From Dictyostelium discoideum (lineage: Eukaryota), in the NCBI GenBank assembly GCA_000004695.1, contig CM000151.3, forward strand, positions 6,048,001 to 6,112,000: 64,000 nucleotides of DNA, written 5' to 3'. Shown one piece after another: positions 26-30,862 of the stretch (positions are counted from its first letter, which is position 1; every line of letters begins with the position of its first letter). The notes below the pieces were generated by a model. That model was given only the letters and a program-made list of their open reading frames with translations, was not told the origin of the DNA and searched no databases. The position numbers were made by a program, and so were the translations under genes.

Positions 26-491
26 ATGCTAGCAGGTGAAAAAGGTTATATTACAGTGGAAGAGTTTTTATCAATTTTAGAATCAATCTATTCTTCATTA
101 ACAAATTTAACTATTGTAACATGTAATCCACAAGCATTTCTAAAAAGATTATTCCCTGAATTTTCATTTAGTTATCAAAGAAAACAAAAACTATTATTAC
201 AACAACAACAACAATTACAGCAGCAACAACAACAACAACAACAACAGCAGCAACAAAAATCATCATGGTCCTCAACTTCACCTTCACCTTCATCAACTAC
301 TAATTCTCTTAGAAATAGTTTAAGACTATCAAGAGCTATAGATAATAATAATAATCATAATAATCATAACCATAATCATAATAATAGTAATATTAACAAT
401 GAAGATGATTTAAATCTTGATTCAGATTCAGACTCTGATTCATTCCCAACACCATCAACCTCTCCACTTTTATTTAAAATTGGTATAAAAA

Positions 492-531
<40 letters not shown>

Positions 532-545
532 GCAACAACAACAGC

Positions 546-583
<38 letters not shown>

Positions 584-2557
584 GAACAACAGCAACAACA
601 ACAACAAGAAAACCAACAAATAATAAAAGATGAGAATGAAACAGTAGAAAATCAATCACAAGAGATAAAGCAAAAAGAAGATGAAAATCAAAAAGAAGTT
701 GAAAATCAAAAACAAGATTTAAAAAATCAAAAAGAAGAAAAAGAAGAAGAGGAAGAAATAAAGGAACAAAGAAAATTTGAAACCAAAAATGATAATTTTG
801 TTCAAGTTAATACAAAGAAATCAGTTAGAGGTAGTATATTTTTTGCACCATTAGATTCACATGAAAAAATTAATAATATTTCAAGTATTGGTAATCATAG
901 ATCTTTAATTAGAAATAGTAGTAGTAGTGTATTAGATAATAATAGTAATAATAGTAATAATAATAATAATAATAAAAACAATAATGAATCTACAGCAACA
1001 CCAAATACAACTAATTCAACAACACCAATTACATCAGCAACAACATCAACATCATCATCTCCATCATCATCATATAAAAGTCAATCATTACCAGATTTAC
1101 CATCACATATACCAAAAACACCAACAAAATCATCAATTATAAATAATAATAATAATACATCAAAAACAATAACAACTAAATCATCATCATCATTTGAAAA
1201 TGGTTTAAATAATAGTGGAATTGATAATAATTATATTAGTAAAAAAGAAAAAATTGAAAATGATAAAGTTTTTCAATTAAATGGTAGAATTTATTTTAAA
1301 GAATTTAAACAAGCATTATCAGATAATTTATATTTTGTAAAGAGTTTAGGTTTAGTTAATCATTATGAAAATCCATTGATTAGAGAAACTGAGGGTAATG
1401 ATGGTCTATTGGTTAATCATTCATCGAATTGGGTAACATCACAAGGTAAAGATGTATCAATTGGTCATATAAATTGGGAGTTAATTCAATATATTATGAT
1501 TGGTATTAGAAGGTCTGCAGGTGAAGCCATCGTACTAACCAATAGAGCAACATTGAAGCCTAAAGATTTTGAAATGGTTGTTGAATTCAAATATGATGGT
1601 TGGACATTCAAAGATCATTACCCATTAGCATTCAAAAAGATTAGAGAAAGATTAGAAATTGATCCAAAGATGTTTATGTTTTCCTTGGGTCCTGAAAGAG
1701 TGTTTGGTAATTTACTATTAGGCAATCTTTCAGTGTTGAGTGAAATGAACTCTAGTGGTAAAAGTGGCAGTGTTTTCTTTAGATCGACAGAGGGTGATTA
1801 TTTAATTAAAACCATTCCAACACATGAAGAATCAATATTGAAAGCGGTTTTACCAACTTATGTACAGCATTTACAAAAATATCCAAATAGTTTATTAATA
1901 AAGATATTGGGTTGTTATACACTTCAAATAAAGGGTAAAGCAGAGATGAAATTCTTGGTCATGAATAACCTTTTCTTCACTCCATTACCATTGTCTGAGA
2001 AGTACGATTTGAAAGGCTCTGTCATCAATAGAAAAGTTGACAAGAATGATTTACTCTTACCTGATATCGCTTTAAAAGATCAAGAATTTCATAGAATACT
2101 CGATATTGGCCCAGAGTTTAAAGCACCATTATTAGAACAAATCGAACATGATACAATGTTTTTAGAATCTCATAATATCTGTGATTATAGTTTATTGGTT
2201 GGCATTCATACTATAGATGAAAATTCACCATTGGCTCTTTCGGATGATGATGATCCTGATCTTTCAAATGTGGGTGGTGTTAAAAGAGACACTTGGAAAG
2301 TATTGGAAGAAGAATTCTTTAAAAAAACTAGTGGTAAAATCTCTTTATTTCAAAAGAATTTTGGTGGTATCCTTTCAAAAAATAAAAAAGAAGTTTATTT
2401 CATCGCTATCATCGATACTTTTACCGCTTGGGATTGGTGGAAAAAGTCTGAACGTGCCTTAAAATTCTTGGGTAATGATTTAGATAAAATATCTGCTGTT
2501 AATCCAACTGATTATCGAAAAAGATTTCAACATTATGTTTCAAAAATTGTTCAATAA
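26..2557 (+). CDS. Phosphatidylinositol-4-phosphate 5-kinase (PIPK) family protein; 5' end probably lies outside the window
   Basis: 843-aa ORF. The C-terminal half has the PIPK catalytic core (GKSGSVFFRSTEGDYLIKTIPTHEE, MKFLVMNNLF, DYSLLVGIH); the N-terminal half is poly-Q/poly-N/acidic low complexity. The frame stays open back to nt 2, and nt 1-14 end in tattattatag (acceptor-like), so an upstream exon is likely. Confidence 0.8.
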
Positions 2558-3212: not shown

Positions 3213-3875
3213 ATGTGTGGAATTAGTGGTTGGGTAGATTGGTCAAATAAAAATGATTTATTAAAAGAAGTTGCAATAATTCAAAGAATGAATCAAAGTG
3301 TTTATCATAGAGGACCAGAGGAAGGTGGAATTTGGAAATCAAGTGATGCATTATTTGGACATCGTAGATTATGTGTTATTGATGCAGCAGGTGGTAAACA
3401 ACCAATGATTTTTAAAAAAGGTGATAAATCAATTGTATTATGTTTTAATGGGGAATTATATAATTTTCAAGATTTAAGAAATGAATTAATTTCTTTGGGT
3501 AATCAATTTAAAAGTCATTCTGATACTGAAGTAATTCTAATGTCATATATTCAATGGGGTGAACAATGTGTTAAAAAGTTTAACGGAATGTTTGCAGTTG
3601 CAATCTTTGATGAAGAAAACCAAAAATTATTCCTTGCAAGAGATCATCTTGGTGTTAAACCATTATTCTATTGTACTAGAGGTGATTCCATTCTTTTTGG
3701 TTCAGAAATGAAAGTTTTACTAGCAAATAATAAATTGGTTAAAGCAGAAGTTGATAAAGATGGTATTGCTCAATTATTTTATTTGGGTGCATTTCGTACA
3801 CCAGATATTGGTTGTATATTTAAAGATATACATGAAGTATCACCTGGACATTCAATTACATTTAATAAATCATTA

Positions 3876-3939
<64 letters not shown>

Positions 3940-5150
3940 TCTCTTTCACTACAACTGGTCAAAAAGAATATTGGAATTTAAAATGTTTACCACATACTGA
4001 TGATGTTCATCAAACAAGTAAAAAACTTAGAGGATTAATTGAAGGTGCACTTTCAAGACAATTAATATCAGATGTACCAATTACATTTTTATTATCTGGT
4101 GGTTTATCATCTAGTGTATTGGTTTCATTGGCATCATCACTATCGAAATCATCATTTCCTGAACCATGTCCAATTAATGAAACTAGTATTTTGAAAACTT
4201 TTTCATGTGAATTTGAAAATGATGATAAAGATTATAAAGAAGAAATTGAAGGACCAAAAAAACCATGGGTTGAAAAGGTTGTTAAAAATGTTCAAAGTAA
4301 TCATATTTCCACACAATGTAATGTTGATAATTTAATAAATACAATTTCATTACCAATGAAAGCAAGAGATCTTCCAAGTTTTTCAAAATGGGAAACACCA
4401 TTAAGACTAATGCTAAACAAAGTAAAAGATCATGGTGTGGTTTTAATCTCTGATGAAGGTTCTGATGAAATATTCTCTGGTTATGATTGGTTCAAAAAAC
4501 AATCTTCTTTAAATATGGATAGATTACCATGGATTGGCAATATCTATAATAATATCAATCATTTCTTAAAGGATCAAATATTAGAACAAGTTGATTTTAT
4601 GAAATATGGTGAGCAAGTCTATCAAAAAGCCATTAAAAACATGCCAGTGCTACAAGGTGAGGATGAAACTCAAGTAAAACAAAGAGTTGCCTCTTGGTTA
4701 TTTATTAAATACTTTTTAGTATATATGCTTGAACGTGAAGATAGAACATCAATGTCTCAATCATTAGAAGTTCGTGTACCTTATTGTGATTATAATTTGG
4801 TTGAATATTGTTGGAACATACCATACAATATGAAATCAATTGATGATATTGAAAAAGGTATTTTACGTCGTTCAATGGCTCAACAATTACCAAAAGATAT
4901 TTTATATCATACAAAGGATAATTTCCCATTATCAGTTAAAGATACAAATTTCTTTATTTCAGTTTGTAGTCTATTGGAAATTGAATTAAATAATCCATCC
5001 TCACCAATTTTAAATTTTATTAAAAAGGAATCAATTATGGAAATTATTAAAAATAAATATGATGAAAAATATCAAACCTATCAAAATCAAAGTGTTATTG
5101 AACATTTACTTCAAGTAAATACATGGATCATTGATTATAATGTTAAATTT

Positions 5151-5156
<6 letters not shown>
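3213..5156 (+). CDS. Asparagine synthetase (glutamine-hydrolysing) family protein, AsnB-type, intronless
   Basis: 647-aa ORF starting MCGISGW (Cys2 nucleophile of a class-II Gn-amidotransferase). Conserved blocks are HRGPE, GHRRLCVID, FNGELYN, ARDHLGVKPLFY and the synthetase-domain blocks LLSGGLSSS, ISDEGSDEIFSGYDWF, VRVPYCDYNLVEY. There is an internal (AAT)23 poly-Asn insertion. Confidence 0.8.
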
Positions 5157-5306: not shown

Positions 5307-6202
5307 TTAATGTTGCTTAATTAAAGAGATTTTATCTAATCCTCTTGATTGTTTCAAACCATTATTTGTTAATAAAATGATGCCATCACAATTTCCATCT
5401 TTTGGAATATTAATAATAAAATCATTTTTTTCATTAATATTATTGTTAACACTATCATCATTATTCTCTATTTGAAACTTGTGAGTGATCATTTCATTAA
5501 TTTCATCTGTTTTAAATTCAATCACTGTTTGAGGTTGTACATCTTGTTTTTCAATATTATAAATAATATAAATAAATGTTAGTTTTGAATCTTCAGTTTC
5601 ATTATCTTCGTTTAATGAACTTGAATATTGCTTTGTGTTTTTTTCAATTCTAAAACCTTTTGAAGTTGAATTAAAATCAATATTGAATTGATTTGTTTTT
5701 TTATCCAATAAACTTTGTGTTAACTAAATAAAAACAATAATAAAAATAAAAATAATAAAATATATTAATATTTTATTAAAATCAATTAAATTAATAAATA
5801 TTAAAATTAAAAAAATAATAAATAAATACAAACCTTAATAATTAAATATGAAGCAATTATTCCTATTGAAATAATTGTTACAATAGTGGCTGATAATAAA
5901 ATTAAACCAATTATACTTTTACGAACCCAAATAAAAATTAATGAAAGTAATGTACCTAATAAAACTGAACCAATACCAATTTTATAAGCCATATCTGATC
6001 TATTTAAAATATTTCTACATTCAGTTGCCAATAATTTATATTGGTCAAATGTTAAATAACCTTCTAATTCATTTGGTAATTGAGTTGGTATTATTATTCT
6101 ATCTGAATGGCTACCCTCTTCTAATTTACAATTTTCACAACAACAAGTAGGGAATTTTAAATCTATACATTCTTTTTTTTTATAATTTTTTAATTTTAAC
6201 AA
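5307..6202 (-). CDS. Hypothetical two-TM membrane protein (tandem paralog A); join(6202..5834,5723..5307), 261 aa
   Basis: Exon 1 ends AAG|GTTTGT (phase 0). The 110-nt AT-rich intron ends TATTTAG, and exon 2 continues in the frame of ORF 5307..5708. Two hydrophobic helices sit at the end of exon 1. It is clearly paralogous to the gene at 6662..7659 (IIIPTQLPNELEGYLTFDQYK vs IIIPEQLPDQLKGVLSFKQYK; LDKKTNQFN..EKNTKQY vs LDQKIEQLN..EKKTKQY). Confidence 0.6.
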
Positions 6203-8869: not shown

Positions 8870-10918
8870 CTAAACAGTTTGAATCTTTTTAAATTTTGAT
8901 CTTGATGGATCATATTTTTTTCCAGTTCTTCTAGTTCTATCTTCTTCATAGGAAGCATAATTACCTTCATGAACGATTACTTGACCATCACCTTCAAATG
9001 CAATAATATGAGTACAAAGACGATCTAAAAAGTAACGATCATGACTAATGATAACAGCACAACCTGGATAATCTTCAATGGCAGTTTCTAAATTACGTAA
9101 TACATCAACATCCAAATCATTGGTAGGTTCATCCAATAATAAAAGATTACAACCTCTTTTAATCATTTTTGCAATATGAACACGATTACGTTCACCACCA
9201 GATAGAGAGCCAATGAATTTATCTTGTTCTGGACCACGGAAATTGAATTGAGAGATGTATTCTCTTACGTGAATTTTATAATTGTCACCCATAACTACAT
9301 CATCGGAGCCATCGGCAACCTCTTCATAGATGGTTTTCTCGTCGTCCATTGAAGCACGTGATTGTGCGACGAACCCCATACGAACGGTTTCACCCACTCT
9401 AATTGAACCGGTCAATGGTTTCAATTCACCAGTCATGATTCTAAAAAGTGTTGATTTACCTGTACCATTTGCACCAATGATACCAACGATTGAACCAGGT
9501 TCAATATCGATATTTAAATTTTTAAATAAAGTTCTACCATCAAATTCCATACTAATATCTTTGGCTTCAAATACTACTCTACCTAAACGTGGACAAGGTG
9601 GAATTGAAATTCTACCTGGTTCTCTGAATTTCTCTGGTGCACTTGCCACCAATTCATTGTATTTATCAATACGAACTTTATTCTTTTTAGTTTGAGCTTT
9701 AACACCACCTTTAAGATACTCCAATTCCTTTTTAATGGCTTTCTTTCTTCCCTCCTCCTTTTTATTCTCCATTGAGAGACGTTGCTCCTTTTGTAATAAC
9801 CAACCCGAGTAATTTCCTTTGAATGGTATGAGTGAACCACGATCAACCTCTAAAATCCAATTGGCGACATTATCTAAAAAGTAACGGTCATGAGTGATTG
9901 CAACCACTGTACCACGGTAGTCATGCAAGAAACGTTCTAACCATGCAACACTTTCTGCATCCAAATGATTTGTTGGTTCATCCAATAGTAATACATCAGG
10001 ATTTGAAATTAGTAAACGTGCCAATGCAACTCTACGTCTTTCACCACCTGACAATGTTGTTACATTACTATCACTTGGTGGGCAATTTAATGCGTCGATT
10101 GCAATTGCAATCTTTCTCTTTAAATCCCAAAGTCTTTCTTCCTCAATAATATCAGCCAATTCATCTCTTCTCTTTTCCAATTGTTTTCTTTCTTGTTTAG
10201 TTAACTCTTCATCTTCATCCTCTAATCTTTCCTCGATCTCTTCATGTTCATCCAATATCTCCTTCTTTTCTGCTACACCATCGAAAATATTCTCCTCAAC
10301 AGTTTTATCTGCATCCAACTCTGGTTCTTGATGAAGGAATCCAACTGTTAATCCTTTTGAATATAATACTTGTCCATCATGTTCCGTATCTTCTTGTGAT
10401 AAAATACGCATAAATGATGATTTACCACTACCATTGGTACCAAGTAAACCAATCTTTGATCCTTCTAAAAATGAAAGTGATATATCTTTTAATAAAATTT
10501 TACCATCATCTAATCTTTTATTAACTCCAACCATTGATAATATAACTTTATCTGTTTGATGTTTATCTGCTCCTGTTTTTTTTTCATTTCCTTTTTTTTT
10601 TGCTTTTTTAAAAAAATAAATTAATATTTAAAATTTTAAAATATTATATATTATATGTATGTGTGAGTGATTTTTAATAAATATTTACTTACTTGAATAT
10701 TGTTGAATTAAACCATATGATAAATTTTTGTTTAATTTTAAATTTTCATTTTTATTATTATTATTATTTAATTGAATTGAATTAACTATACTTTCTTTAT
10801 TATTTAAAGTAGTAATTGAAGTTATTGATTTATTTACATTTGTAATATAACAATATCCATTCTTTGTTGAATTAAGCAAAGATAATGGTTTTCTTAATTT
10901 TGAAAATGATGAAATCAT
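8870..10918 (-). CDS. ABC-F family ATPase (two tandem ABC domains, no TMD), with an N-terminal presequence-like extension; join(10918..10693,10602..8870), ~652 aa
   Basis: The downstream ORF has two Walker A motifs (GTNGSGKSS, GANGTGKST), two ABC signatures (LSGGERRRVALARLL, LSGGERNRVHIAKMI) and a charged linker typical of ABCF. The ORF track starts at an internal Met. The frame stays open upstream through a 90-nt intron (donor TCAA|GTAAGT at 10692, acceptor AAAAAAG at 10603, phase 1). It joins a 75-codon first exon, MISSFSKLRKPLSLLNSTKNGYCY..., that is rich in S/K/R/L. Confidence 0.75.
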
Positions 10919-10990
10919 CCTTTGTTTACATTCGAAAAATAAAAAAAGTAAAAAAAAAAAAAAAGTTGAGCTAAAAAAAATCTAATTTCC

Positions 10991-10991
<1 letters not shown>

Positions 10992-11044
<53 letters not shown>
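10992..11044. repeat. Poly(A) homopolymer (~53 nt) in the ABCF 5' flank
   Basis: Uninterrupted A run read directly from the sequence. Confidence 0.9.
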
Positions 11045-11045
<1 letters not shown>

Positions 11046-11161
11046 GATAAATTAATTATTCGTTTTTTTTAATATTTTATTTTATTTTATTTTATTTTAT
11101 TCTATTTACAATTCGTTTGTTATTTCAGTTATTTATTTATATATATTTTTTTTTTCAATGA

Positions 11162-11427
11162 TTAATTTTTAGTTGATTCATTTGATTCTAAGATTACATT
11201 TGAAATTGCATAATCAGTATCATGAGAAATTGCTAGATGAATTTTATTAATACCCAATTCTTTGAAATATGATTCAGTTGTTTCTAATAAATTTACATAT
11301 GGACGTCCATTTGATTCATTTAAAATTTGAATATTTTGAAAATTTAATTTTGAACGATCTTGATTTCCAATTGCTTTATAAATTGATTCCTTTGCTGCCC
11401 ATCTACCTGCTAAATATTCAAATCCTC

Positions 11428-11476
<49 letters not shown>

Positions 11477-11755
11477 TAATTCACTATTATCGTTATCATC
11501 AATACTTTCTGTTATTGATGCTGTTGGATTTAGTGATTTAAATATTGATATTTCAACTTCATTAAATGCTCTTTTTAAAAATTTATCACCATGTCTTGGA
11601 ATTATCATTAAAAAAAAAAAAAAAATTAATAAAAAAAGGTGGAAAATGATAATAAAATATTTTAATTATTAATTATATTAAAAATACCTTTTAAATGATG
11701 ATTCTAATCTTGATATCTTTACAATATCATTTCCAATACCAAATATCTTATTCAT
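11162..11755 (-). CDS. AcpS-type 4'-phosphopantetheinyl transferase (holo-ACP synthase); join(11755..11688,11594..11162), ~166 aa
   Basis: Exon 1 encodes MNKIFGIGNDIVKISRLESSFKR (canonical AcpS N-terminus, GxGxD). Donor AAAAG|GTATTT, 93-nt intron, acceptor CCAAG; the phase-2 junction gives R-HGDKFLKRAF... Exon 2 has GRWAAKESIYKA and HLAISHD (AcpS motifs 2 and 3) plus an (AAT)n poly-N insert. Confidence 0.8.
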
Positions 11756-28631: not shown

Positions 28632-30862
28632 TACAACAACCTGAAAATGATATTGAAGTTTATATTACACATGTCGATAATTTATTACCAAAATTTATTG
28701 GTGAAAGTTCAAAGAAATTAGTTCGTCAATTGATTACACCATCGAATAAAAAGATTTTAGATTTATTGGTATTAATCTCTGATATAAATACAACATTTCA
28801 AGAACAATATAATATAAAGATTTCAATTATATCAAAGGCTCAAAATGAATCATCATTCTCAGAGTTTATAAAATATATGGTAAATAAATTGGCATATTCT
28901 ATAGTTGGTAAAGAGAATATTAAATATTTGTTAAGAGGATTAAGAAGTGATTTAGGTTTAGATAATTTCGATAAAAATAATCCAATTGATTTATTGGAAG
29001 AGTTTAACGAGAAAATCTACGAGAAAGAGGTTAAAGATGGTGTACCAGAGACATTAGAGGTTTTATTGATGTTGTCTCAAGTCTATGCAAATATTTTCGA
29101 TGATTATGGTGATCAATTAGTTGGTTTCTTAACTTGTTCAAAGTCAATAGTTTATCCAGTTTTACAAATTCTATCAAATTCTTGGAAAACTTTGAAACTA
29201 TCAAAGAAAACCCTAAAGAGTACATTGGATATGTTATTAAGATTGACTCAAGTACCACAACCAACACTTGCAAGATTAGCATTCAAAACCTTTATTAAAT
29301 TTGCAACACCAGCTTTAACAAGTATAAATTCAACCAATGGTAAAGTTGATAACAATAAATTAGTGGTCACATTGAAAGATTTAGCAAATAATTTATTCGA
29401 TCAATTAGAGGATAAATCAAAGAATCTCCTTTCAATTCTAGAGGTAATTGGTTGTTTGGCAAAGGGTTATTCATTAGTATTATCAGAACATTTGGATACA
29501 TTGGATATTTTATTAATTAAAAAGATTATGACTGGAGTTTGTACATTGGATTTCAATCAAAAGGTACAATTAAATAAATCTGTCGAACATCATTTAAATA
29601 CTTCCTATAGTAAAGATGTACTAATAAAGATTGCTGCAATTAAATGTATGTCAAATTATCTATTGGGTTTACGTGAAATTACAAAGAAATCTCATGAAAT
29701 GGTTAATATGCTATTCGAATTCTACATTGGTTTAGACAAAAATAAAACTTACAATGATTTGGAAAAGAGTCATCTAAAAATTCATATTGCAATAGGTTTA
29801 TTAAGAGTTTTCCAAAGAAGTCAATACGAGAAAGAAATTACACCACAACAATTCATTCTTATTTGTAATTCTACCTCTATCACTACTAAACAAAGAGGCG
29901 ATCCATTAATTAGAAGATTAATAGAAAAGTTGGCAAAAGTGATGATTTTAAATCGTTTACCAATGAAGTATATGGCTGCTTTTGGTATGGCTGCTCAACA
30001 ACCTTATTCTGTGTTGGCATTGGTTCGTAAACATTCAACATCAATTATAAAAACTAGAAGAATGGTTATATCTCGTTTGGCTGCATCATTATCAATGGCA
30101 AAGAATTTAACCGAGTTTTATCCAGAATCTTCAATGCCTTACTTTTTATATGTAGTTAGTCATCGTGAGGATTTTGAAAGGGATGCTCCTGATTACATTG
30201 AATCAGCATGTTATTTAAACTTTTTCATCGATCTATTGGTAGAGGAAGCCGATAACTATTCAATCATTCATACTATCTTTACAAAGCTAAAGAGATCAAC
30301 TGATGCACTCGATAAAAAATCAAAGAATCATATTATTGCTGCTGAATTGGGTCTTCAAATTTTAACTCATCAATATCAACAAAAGAAATGGAAACCACAA
30401 AAACATCCTATTGTTATTGTTTTACCAGAGAAATTCTATATCATTCATGATGATCAAGATGAAATGTCAATCGATGATGAAGTTACCTCAATTAAATTAC
30501 CAAGTTTATTACCAAAAAGATTTAAATTACCACCTTTACCTTCTATTACTGATCAAAATAATAATAATAATAATAATAATACTAACTCAACCAATAATGA
30601 TGAATCAGAAAAAGATGAAAATAATAATAATAAAAATGATAATGATAATGATAATGATAATGATGATAATTCCACTACAGCAGTACCTCAAAAATCAATA
30701 ATATCAAAACCTCCAGCCAAAAAAGTATCAAAAAAAGCAGCAGCAAAACAAAAATCACCAAAAAAGAAAACAAATAAAAAGAAAAAACAATCTAGTAGTG
30801 AAGAGGAAGTATCTAGTAGTGAAGAGGAAGATGAAAGTCAAGATGAAGAGGTCGAGAATTAA
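26432..30862 (+). CDS. pds5: Sister-chromatid cohesion protein PDS5 homolog; exon 1 26432..26968, 77-nt intron, exon 2 from 27046 (apparent +1 frameshift near 27119; uninterrupted ORF 27164..30862)
   Basis: Exon 1 ends ...EKIIKRLK|GTATGA (compare human PDS5 ..DEMIKRLK). After the AATAG acceptor the sequence encodes KLDEYLQDKKRGNTEGLEIVLEVLI, then shifts frame into DPKFADNKIFEIRLMTSCCLSEIFRIYAP (human VRLLVACCLADIFRIYAP). The HEAT-repeat body matches PDS5 throughout (e.g. SIRKGAAIVLSRCYS). The C-terminus is K/S/E-rich. Confidence 0.8.

Follow-up and report, generated by a model that had tools for sequence, protein, structure and literature searches.

Can a member of the asparagine synthetase family give up the aspartate that defines its nucleotide-binding loop and still be maintained by selection? 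The question is raised by a gene in a 64,000-nucleotide stretch of Dictyostelium discoideum DNA (hereafter the window; NCBI GenBank assembly GCA_000004695.1, contig CM000151.3, positions 6,048,001 to 6,112,000 of the forward strand). This gene encodes an AsnB-family amidotransferase whose PP-loop reads SGGLSS rather than SGGLDS. The missing residue is treated as the defining, invariant metal ligand of PP-loop enzymes, among them the asparagine, GMP, NAD, and argininosuccinate synthetases, tRNA-modifying enzymes, and QueC. The window gene amounts to a natural experiment in re-wiring a PP-loop site: the Asp and three other near-universal residues have been replaced, while the rest of the nucleotide site and the glutaminase have been retained under selection. 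The explanation that we favor, and to which we give an even chance, is that the protein is a horizontally acquired, duplicated, and neofunctionalized AsnB-family paralog with a re-wired Mg-ATP site, which would still bind nucleotide and would have changed its use of metal and its acceptor.

The window gene encodes a complete protein that lacks the PP-loop aspartate

The open reading frame (ORF) of the gene is complete and specifies a 647-residue protein that begins MCGISGW, with no in-frame stop codons. Two Pfam domains were matched, GATase_7 (1e-46) and Asn_synthase (PF00733; 7e-81). The PF00733 match spans residues 271-639 and scores 273 bits against a cutoff of 21. The coding sequence and the features of its synthetase half are listed by window coordinates.

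3213..5156, plus strand: complete AsnB-family amidotransferase coding sequence, intronless, 647 aa plus TAA, from the ORF list
3960..5153, plus strand: synthetase (PP-loop ATP-pyrophosphatase-like) domain, aa 250-647, from the PF00733 match
4095..4112, plus strand: PP-loop S295-G-G-L-S299-S300 (SGGLSS), with Ser299 in place of the Mg-ligand Asp
4152..4181, plus strand: clade-specific insertion of 10 aa (SFPEPCPINE, aa 314-323), immediately behind the PP-loop helix
4257..4259, plus strand: Lys349 (AAA), replacing a near-universal Asp in HMMER alignments to human ASNS and TsnB9; Lys in all orthologs
4449..4469, plus strand: SDEGSDE motif, aa 413-419, in which Asp414 (GAT, 4452-4454) replaces a near-universal Gly
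4734..4745, plus strand: REDR, aa 508-511, in which Glu509 replaces the Lys of the subfamily motif RKDR
4854..4856, plus strand: Lys548 of the IEK motif, equivalent to human Lys-444, kept though its partner, the PP-loop Asp, is lost
4908..4916, plus strand: His566-Thr567-Lys568, in which His566 (CAT, all orthologs) replaces a near-universal Arg and Lys568 is kept

A preliminary description of this locus had reported an intronless gene with a poly-Asn insertion, an intact glutaminase domain, and Ser in place of the PP-loop Asp, and had named misalignment as the way in which the last point could fail. All four observations hold. Ser299 (codon TCA, 4107-4109) faces the Asp of SGGLDS in three HMMER pairwise alignments, with TsnB9 (7ylz), E. 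coli AsnB (1ct9), and human ASNS (6gq3). Two MAFFT multiple alignments likewise place it opposite this Asp, and the agreement of the pairwise and multiple alignments rules out misalignment of the PP-loop. The remaining residues of the superfamily signature, the motif Ser, Gly, Gly, and Ser, are in place, and Foldseek matched the fold. In an AlphaFold2 model of the protein (mean predicted local distance difference test [pLDDT] 82.8, predicted template modeling score 0.87), a strand (residues 290-293) leads into the PP-loop, which is followed by a helix (298-311), giving a Rossmann-like alpha/beta fold in this region.

Four residues of the Mg-pyrophosphate corner are replaced together

We mapped the altered positions onto enzymes of known structure. 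Position 299 corresponds to human Asp-261 and E. coli Asp238, 349 to human Asp-294 and E. coli Asp279, 414 to human Gly-363 and E. coli Gly347, 418 to human Asp-367 and E. coli Asp351, and 566 to human Arg-464 and E. coli Arg447. Electron cryomicroscopy of human ASNS with AMP, pyrophosphate (PPi), and two Mg2+ revealed that Asp-261 and Asp-367 coordinate the metals (bioRxiv 10.1101/2025.10.16.682859). Human Asp-261, Asp-294, and Gly-363 are named jointly in a modeled water network around an adenylate analogue and MgPPi (PMC6748925). By correspondence with these human residues, positions 299, 349, and 414 are predicted to line the adenylate/MgPPi pocket. The alignments show that four near-universal residues assigned to the Mg-PPi corner are replaced together: Asp299 by Ser or Ala, Asp349 by Lys, Gly414 by Asp, and Arg566 by His. 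The PP-loop change singled out in the preliminary description is therefore real, but its account was too small in scope: it left out D349K, G414D, R566H, K509E, R528N, D278G, the 10-aa insertion, and the strong purifying selection described below.

Other catalytic residues are retained. Within SDEGSDE, the ribose-binding Ser413, the catalytic Glu415, and the second Mg ligand Asp418 are present; REDR retains Arg508 (human Arg-403), Asp510, and Arg511. Lys568 corresponds to the essential Lys of the family (E. coli Lys449, human Lys-466). In human ASNS, activity is abolished by E364A, E364Q, and D367A and lowered by D367N; Lys-466 is essential, and Asp-400 lies in a modeled pocket that binds the amino group of the ligand (PMC6748925). 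The equivalent of Asp-400 (E. coli Asp384) is Met505 both in the window protein and in the aligned Bacillota homologs. Human ASNS also contains a salt bridge between Asp261 and Lys444 (bioRxiv 10.64898/2026.02.01.703106), the counterpart of which would involve positions 299 and 548.

When the window protein and its orthologs (the window clade) were compared with 184 close homologs, 56 of 73 family-invariant positions in the synthetase domain were retained and 17 were changed, several of them radically. The fixed changes mostly alter charge (D278G, D299S/A, D349K, G414D, E476N/K/R, K509E, R528N/K, and R566H). The SFPEPCPINE insertion is present in all six orthologs (6/6), is absent from paralogs and bacterial homologs, and has a pLDDT of about 80-90.

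We considered whether the Asp349/Lys509 pair had been converted to a charge-swapped salt bridge, Lys349/Glu509. Across the wider family, position 509 is variable, with Lys in only 55 of 149 representatives, making K509E a subfamily-level change. Since 509 is variable, 349 is near-universal, and the two positions do not covary, such a swap is not supported.

The pattern is rare in the AsnB family

An exhaustive search returned 67,796 homologs, from which clustering at 50% identity yielded a diverse sample of 149 representatives; a set of 115 other close homologs was used for the PP-loop Asp and position 414. Position 299 is Asp in all 115 close homologs and in 141 of the 149 representatives. 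Position 349 is Asp or Glu in 140/149, position 414 is Gly in 143/149, and position 566 is Arg in 138 of the 141 representatives without a gap; at these positions the window clade has Ser/Ala, Lys, Asp, and His, respectively. Asp at position 414 was found in none of the 149 diverse representatives and none of the 115 close homologs. Lys548 is more variable, occurring in 130 of 149.

Loss of Asp299 is associated with loss of Asp349 across independent lineages (Fisher p=1.7e-7). Since the losses co-occur, positions 299 and 349 appear from the alignment to be functionally coupled. Loss of the glutaminase Cys with retention of the Asp is common (45/149 representatives), and retention of the Cys with loss of the Asp is rare (4/149).

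Several metagenomic AsnB-family lineages have lost the PP-loop Asp independently: the P0244 cluster (six members, on contigs of up to 74 kb), P0296, and P0327. Their PP-loops read SGGMGC, SGGLNS, and CDGLSS; the equivalent of Asp349 is lost as well, and that of Lys548 often is. Two of these lineages retain the glutaminase Cys. All are more degenerate than the window clade, whose pattern is not present among them. AsnB homologs with an intact glutaminase and a degenerate PP-loop seem to form a recurrent but unstudied category. Our literature searches found no work on the window gene or on AsnB-family members without the PP-loop Asp; for Dictyostelium and asparagine synthetase they returned nothing relevant, the sole match being the ASNSD1 ortholog DDB_G0278193, and on Mg coordination in beta-lactam synthetase they gave only unrelated papers.

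Orthologs retain the replacements under purifying selection

Orthologs were identified in D. cf. discoideum, D. citrinum, D. dimigraforme, D. firmibasis, and D. purpureum, with 71-92% identity. The PP-loop Asp is absent from 6/6 Dictyostelium orthologs, five of which have Ser (TCA) and one, from D. purpureum, Ala (GCC). Since the canonical paralogs have a GAT codon at this position, D. purpureum has GCC, and the other orthologs have TCA, the codons suggest a path from Asp through Ala to Ser. No ortholog in the clade departs from Ser295, Gly296, Gly297, Ser300, Ser413, Glu415, Arg508, Asp510, Arg511, Lys548, or Lys568. Position 418, the second Mg ligand, is Asn in D. dimigraforme.

The whole protein is under purifying selection across the divergence of D. 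discoideum and D. purpureum. Nei-Gojobori ratios of nonsynonymous to synonymous substitution (dN/dS) are 0.11-0.18 for the whole gene, 0.08-0.18 for the glutaminase domain, and 0.10-0.17 for the synthetase domain. The domains differ in their history of change. In a relative-rate test, the synthetase domain of the window lineage had 87 unique changes versus 35 in the canonical D. purpureum paralog P0006, an approximately 2.5-fold excess (p=2.5e-6), whereas the glutaminase domain was not significantly accelerated (35 versus 23, p=0.12). A burst of change was thus succeeded by constraint. Judging from the 56 of 73 invariant sites and the other nucleotide-binding and catalytic residues that are kept, the synthetase changes are targeted and decay is unlikely.

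Synteny is conserved around the orthologs, with an Ank-C1-PIP5K gene upstream and small genes, an ABCF gene, and a 4'-phosphopantetheinyl transferase (PPTase) gene downstream. The D. purpureum ortholog has a single intron of 79 nt in phase 0 (L001:7459-7537), and the orthologs of the D. discoideum complex are intronless, which implies that the intron was lost from them. In the D. cf. discoideum ortholog (P0001), the last few residues diverge and are followed by a Ser/Thr-rich extension of about 26 aa, suggesting that its 3' end differs through a frameshift, an altered stop codon, or annotation.

The glutaminase domain is canonical

The class II glutaminase domain, which belongs to the N-terminal nucleophile (Ntn) type, occupies the first third of the protein and is followed by a linker that carries the poly-Asn tract.

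3213..3857, plus strand: class II (Ntn) glutaminase domain, aa 1-215, aligned to E. coli AsnB and human ASNS
3216-3218, plus strand: Cys2, the nucleophile, directly after the initiator Met and invariant among orthologs
3366-3368, plus strand: Arg52, aligned to E. coli AsnB Arg49
3447-3455, plus strand: Asn79-Gly80-Glu81, aligned to E. coli AsnB Asn74, Gly75, and Glu76
3522-3524, plus strand: Asp104, aligned to E. coli AsnB Asp98
3876..3938, plus strand: poly-Asn tract of 21 Asn, aa 222-242, in the interdomain linker; pLDDT below 50 at residues 223-240

The E. coli AsnB residues Arg49, Asn74, Gly75, Glu76, and Asp98 reportedly serve in glutamine binding and in the oxyanion hole, roles said to have been described by Larsen in 1999. 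All have counterparts in the window protein, in which the glutaminase motifs YHRGPEE and FGHRRLCVIDAAGG can also be seen. The window clade retains 45 of 53 family-invariant positions in this domain relative to the 184 close homologs, and the substitutions are conservative. The Ntn glutaminase at the N terminus is shown to be canonical and under constraint. Among species the poly-Asn tract differs in length, and D. firmibasis and D. purpureum have almost none of it. It represents simple sequence typical of the host, lies outside the enzyme core, and is functionally uninformative.

Sequence relationships support an old acquisition from Bacillales-type bacteria

The closest relatives outside the amoebae are Bacillota proteins, mainly from Bacillales, of about 606-625 aa, which are 41-44% identical to the window protein over their full length (E about 1e-160 to 1e-169) and which we take to be AsnO-like. 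Matches to enzymes of known structure are weaker: E=7e-93 for TsnB9 (7ylz), 5e-38 for E. coli AsnB, and 4e-30 for human ASNS. Because Bacillota proteins match at about 1e-169 and human ASNS at 4e-30, the window protein, by sequence, is not a canonical eukaryotic ASNS, in agreement with the preliminary description, which had judged it to resemble bacterial AsnB-family proteins more closely.

D. purpureum encodes two further copies with a canonical SGGLDS loop, DICPUDRAFT_88339 (P0006) and DICPUDRAFT_96549 (P0016). These canonical amoeba paralogs are 51-56% identical to Bacillota proteins, with DICPUDRAFT_88339 reaching 56% to Bacillus proteins. Both contain AT-rich spliceosomal introns and have eukaryotic neighbors. 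The intron of DICPUDRAFT_88339 is 70 nt long and in phase 2 (L005:6449-6518). It lies 2 nt from the position of the intron in the D. purpureum ortholog of the window gene (P0005), at window codons 507/508 within the ER(K/E)DR motif. As the two introns are only 2 nt apart, the arrangement fits an intron that predates the duplication, that is, one acquisition followed by duplication inside the amoeba lineage.

Trees were built by neighbor joining (NJ) only, with 100 bootstraps, from amino-acid distances and after Dayhoff-6 recoding, using the closest relatives of the window protein, amoeba and bacterial sequences only, and not canonical eukaryotic ASNS. The window ortholog group and the clade of all Dictyostelium copies were each supported at 100% by both methods. 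Support for a clade of all eukaryote copies, with two EukProt sequences, was 97-98% with amino-acid distances and 67% with recoding; for eukaryotes plus Bacillales-type sequences it was 98% and 52%. The eukaryote clade is thus nested among Bacillales-type sequences. The two EukProt sequences in this clade, P0055 (gene5304-6605_t) and P0337 (gene3257-4077_t), have canonical PP-loops (SGGVDS / SGGLDS).

These sequence relationships support an old horizontal acquisition of the gene from Bacillales-type bacteria, followed by paralog duplication and divergence. We consider the transfer old because the composition of the gene is fully host-like: GC content is 27%, and 12% at third codon positions (GC3), as in neighboring genes. 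The window as a whole is about 22% GC and contains the poly-Gln and poly-Asn tracts typical of Dictyostelium. The preliminary description had offered a diverged paralog and a horizontally acquired gene as alternatives; both apply, the former from the canonical copies in D. purpureum and the accelerated synthetase domain of the window lineage, the latter from the Bacillota relatives and the nested clade.

No second copy of the amidotransferase gene was found by tblastn across the window. Orthologs of the canonical paralogs were not found for the D. discoideum-complex species among the matches in annotated proteomes, at scores where they should have shown up. Therefore, the Asp-less copy seems to be the only member of this family that these species have retained. 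D. discoideum presumably has a separate asns gene.

DICPUDRAFT_96549 (P0016) lies about 900 bp from a divergently oriented type I polyketide synthase (PKS) gene that encodes more than 2,646 aa with the domains KS-AT-DH-MT-KR (L006:1-7065, D. purpureum GL870957.1). Since TsnB9 amidates a polyketide acid, the two genes may by analogy form a small PKS-amidotransferase biosynthetic pair.

Comparison with characterized relatives

TsnB9/SaHAT (7ylz), an AsnB-family hydroxyamidotransferase from Streptomyces, is the best match to the window protein among solved structures, both by sequence and by fold. In a Foldseek search with the AlphaFold2 model, the TM score to TsnB9 was 0.83 normalized by query and 0.93 normalized by target, with ASNS, AsnB, beta-lactam synthetase, and carbapenam synthetase following. 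The two proteins share a two-domain architecture, an N-terminal Cys, a length of about 600 aa, and a long C-terminal helical extension. We place the window protein, tentatively in view of its 17 changed synthetase positions, in the long Bacillales/TsnB9-type subfamily of AsnB proteins; as TsnB9/SaHAT activates a non-aspartate carboxylic acid with ATP, this subfamily is not confined to making asparagine. However, TsnB9 has SGGLDS, SGEAADE, and an Asp at the equivalent of position 349, and the Foldseek identity is only 29%. TsnB9 also sits in a biosynthetic gene cluster, a context that the window gene lacks. The Bacillota relatives differ in a similar manner. The listed homologs carry SGG(L/I/V)DS, SGE at 413-415, and mostly RKDR, unlike the window protein, and they lack the SFPEPCPINE insertion, the poly-Asn tract, and introns.

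The window protein has the same fold, domain order, and glutaminase residues as E. coli AsnB (1ct9) and human ASNS (6gq3, 8sue). All three have the Glu (348/364), the Lys (449/466), the Mg-ligand Asp (351/367), and the Lys of IEK, but the window protein lacks the residues equivalent to Asp238/261, Asp279/294, Gly347/363, Arg447/464, and Asp384/400. Beta-lactam synthetase, carbapenam synthetase (CarA), and the lasso-peptide cyclases also share the fold (Foldseek E about 1e-16 to 1e-20). In these enzymes the glutaminase Cys has been lost and the PP-loop kept, the inverse of the window protein; they are AsnB homologs that no longer make asparagine, as is probably true of the window protein.

On the basis of its residues, we do not file the window protein as an asparagine synthetase: two defining residues, the PP-loop Asp and the Asp384/Asp-400 pocket residue, are missing, and the Gly of SGE is altered. 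The protein passes the curated cutoff of TIGR01536, 'asparagine synthase (glutamine-hydrolyzing)' (436.9 bits, cutoff 267.1), and falls below that of NF033535, the profile considered for the glutaminase-dead relatives (186 bits, cutoff 525). The first result is a warning for annotation, as an equivalog profile names the protein 'asparagine synthase' despite the missing defining residue.

A re-wired synthetase or a pseudo-synthetase?

How might the protein work? In the mechanism that we favor, glutamine would be hydrolyzed at Cys2 and the ammonia would travel through the interdomain tunnel to the synthetase site, which would bind ATP or an adenylate and activate a carboxylate acceptor other than aspartate. 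The ammonium group of Lys349 could substitute for one Mg2+. Asp414 could serve as a relocated carboxylate that holds the remaining metal, as it is predicted to lie in the post-strand loop of Asp418, adjoining the PP-loop in the Rossmann-like sheet. R566H, R528N, K509E, and D278G, together with the new loop, would re-shape acceptor specificity. Parts of this scheme have parallels. Kinases can remain functional without a signature residue, as in WNK, which has a relocated Lys, and CASK, in which catalysis is metal independent; these are analogies only, from an unrelated fold and chemistry. In the QatC-AMPPNP complex, Ser side chains of the PP-loop hold the phosphates together with backbone amides at its Leu and Asp positions (PMC13376578). 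Since QatC uses these groups, it is plausible that the Asp side chain is dispensable for nucleotide binding. TsnB9/SaHAT carries out ATP-dependent amidation of acids other than aspartate (PMC13418202). The strongest form of the proposal is that the window protein is the first PP-loop adenylating enzyme without the signature Asp, with Lys349 replacing one Mg2+, the carboxylate of Asp414, single-metal or Mg-independent chemistry, and a new acceptor; we regard this full combination as unlikely.

Several points weigh against a working re-wired site. At position 299, Asp probably gave way first to Ala, which D. purpureum still has, and changing a metal ligand to Ala is a classic way to inactivate an enzyme. 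In D. dimigraforme, the replacement of Asp418 by Asn suggests that the metal site is under relaxed constraint. Loss of Arg566, Arg528, and the subfamily Lys509 could weaken triphosphate binding. That Asp414 and Lys349 lie near the phosphate/metal site is predicted from sequence mapping to human ASNS and from fold topology, and the segment 339-349 is of low confidence in the AlphaFold2 model. Finally, all the changes fall on a single stem branch and represent one evolutionary event rather than independent replicates.

These points lead to the principal rival, which we view as possible though less probable than a re-wired site: an adenylation-dead pseudo-synthetase, in which the C-terminal domain would be a ligand-binding, regulatory, or scaffold module and glutamine hydrolysis the sole catalysis, making the protein a glutaminase or a regulated source of ammonia. 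Both Mg ligands have proved mutable in the clade (Ser/Ala at 299, Asn at 418), Asp-261 is a direct Mg ligand in human ASNS, and the human D367A and E364A/Q enzymes are inactive. Other lineages without Asp299 are mostly degenerate at several motifs. The better conservation of the glutaminase domain and its lack of acceleration, the likelihood that Ala was the first replacement at position 299, and the disappearance of basic residues all point the same way. Yet constraint on the synthetase domain (dN/dS 0.10-0.17) matches that on the glutaminase domain, and the clade shows no variation at SGG..S, Ser413, Glu415, Arg508, Asp510, Arg511, Lys548, or Lys568. Truly degenerate lineages decay within the glycine-rich loop itself (RESLHS, CDGLSS), and the replacements of Asp349 by Lys and Gly414 by Asp, both invariant, are specific replacements rather than random loss. 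The protein would be of interest under either explanation, as an alternative cation arrangement for adenylation or as a clean pseudo-synthetase controlling a live glutaminase.

Retention of the nucleotide cradle with altered metal ligands can be accounted for in another manner, if the acceptor arrives already adenylated, phosphorylated, or thioester-linked and the enzyme only transfers ammonia to it, without Mg-ATP. PAPS reductases offer a parallel: their fold is PP-loop-like, the Asp is missing, and the substrate that they bind is adenylated. A new cationic residue, Lys349, in the phosphate region would suit this role, and the intact glutaminase implies a nitrogen acceptor. However, the conserved neighbors include no evident adenylating partner, Glu415 and Lys568, which function in adenylate formation in AsnB/ASNS, are still invariant, and no AsnB-family precedent was found in the literature searched; we judge a pre-activated acceptor to be improbable. 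Lower still is the probability that the protein is an asparagine synthetase of the ordinary kind, one that tolerates Asp to Ser as a functionally neutral change. In its favor, the protein passes the TIGR01536 equivalog cutoff, and AsnB, AsnH, and AsnO of B. subtilis are each described as complementing an E. coli asparagine auxotroph (Yoshida 1999, as cited in PMC5485061). Against it, the Asp is a direct Mg ligand present in 141 of 149 diverse relatives, three other near-universal residues are changed alongside it, Met505 occupies the position of the Asp384/Asp-400 pocket residue, and the synthetase domain is significantly accelerated. The window protein is, from this combination of residues, probably no longer an ordinary asparagine synthetase.

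That the gene is a decaying pseudogene, an assembly or sequencing artifact, or bacterial contamination is extremely improbable, as nothing but the unusual motif itself speaks for it. Intact ORFs in six species, low dN/dS, and the 56 of 73 retained synthetase sites rule out a pseudogene or relaxed decay. A sequencing error at codon 299 is ruled out by the non-Asp codons (TCA or GCC) in independent assemblies of four other species. Contamination is ruled out by the host-like GC and GC3, the conserved synteny, and the spliceosomal intron in the D. purpureum ortholog.

The pattern itself is clear and statistically solid, and it should surprise a specialist in PP-loop enzymes. It documents an old gene transfer from bacteria to amoebae, followed by duplication and divergence. 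Its significance is limited to one lineage-specific paralog, with a mechanism that we infer. Because the host is a model organism with tractable genetics, the predictions can be put to a direct test.

Neighboring genes in the window

The neighbors of the amidotransferase gene are a PIP5K gene, two small ORFs without Pfam matches, an ABCF gene, and an AcpS-type PPTase gene. With these neighbors, a biosynthetic cluster that includes the window gene is not supported; a PKS is adjacent only to P0016, the paralog in D. purpureum. The AcpS-type PPTase gene (10685-11608, minus strand; GRWAAKESIYKA...HLAISHD) lies about 5.5 kb downstream and carries a poly-Asn insertion of its own. Although its synteny with the amidotransferase gene is conserved (L002:13359-13890, L004:13522-13905), it is probably a coincidental housekeeping neighbor.

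Upstream, the ORF at 26-2557 (plus strand) is the 3' part of a large gene with a PIP5K domain (E=3e-76), the window starting inside the gene. This large gene is annotated in D. citrinum as an Ank-C1-PIP5K protein of about 1,570 aa, and its poly-Gln and poly-Asn tracts are very abundant. Immediately downstream of the amidotransferase gene, at 5307-6202 (minus strand), are two adjacent ORFs of 133 and 131 aa without Pfam matches, the 131-aa ORF having a hydrophobic C terminus; in orthologous loci they correspond to one conserved gene of about 235-248 aa. Farther downstream, at 27164-30862 (plus strand), is a homolog of the sister-chromatid-cohesion protein PDS5 (PF20168, E=3e-196), which is unrelated to the amidotransferase.

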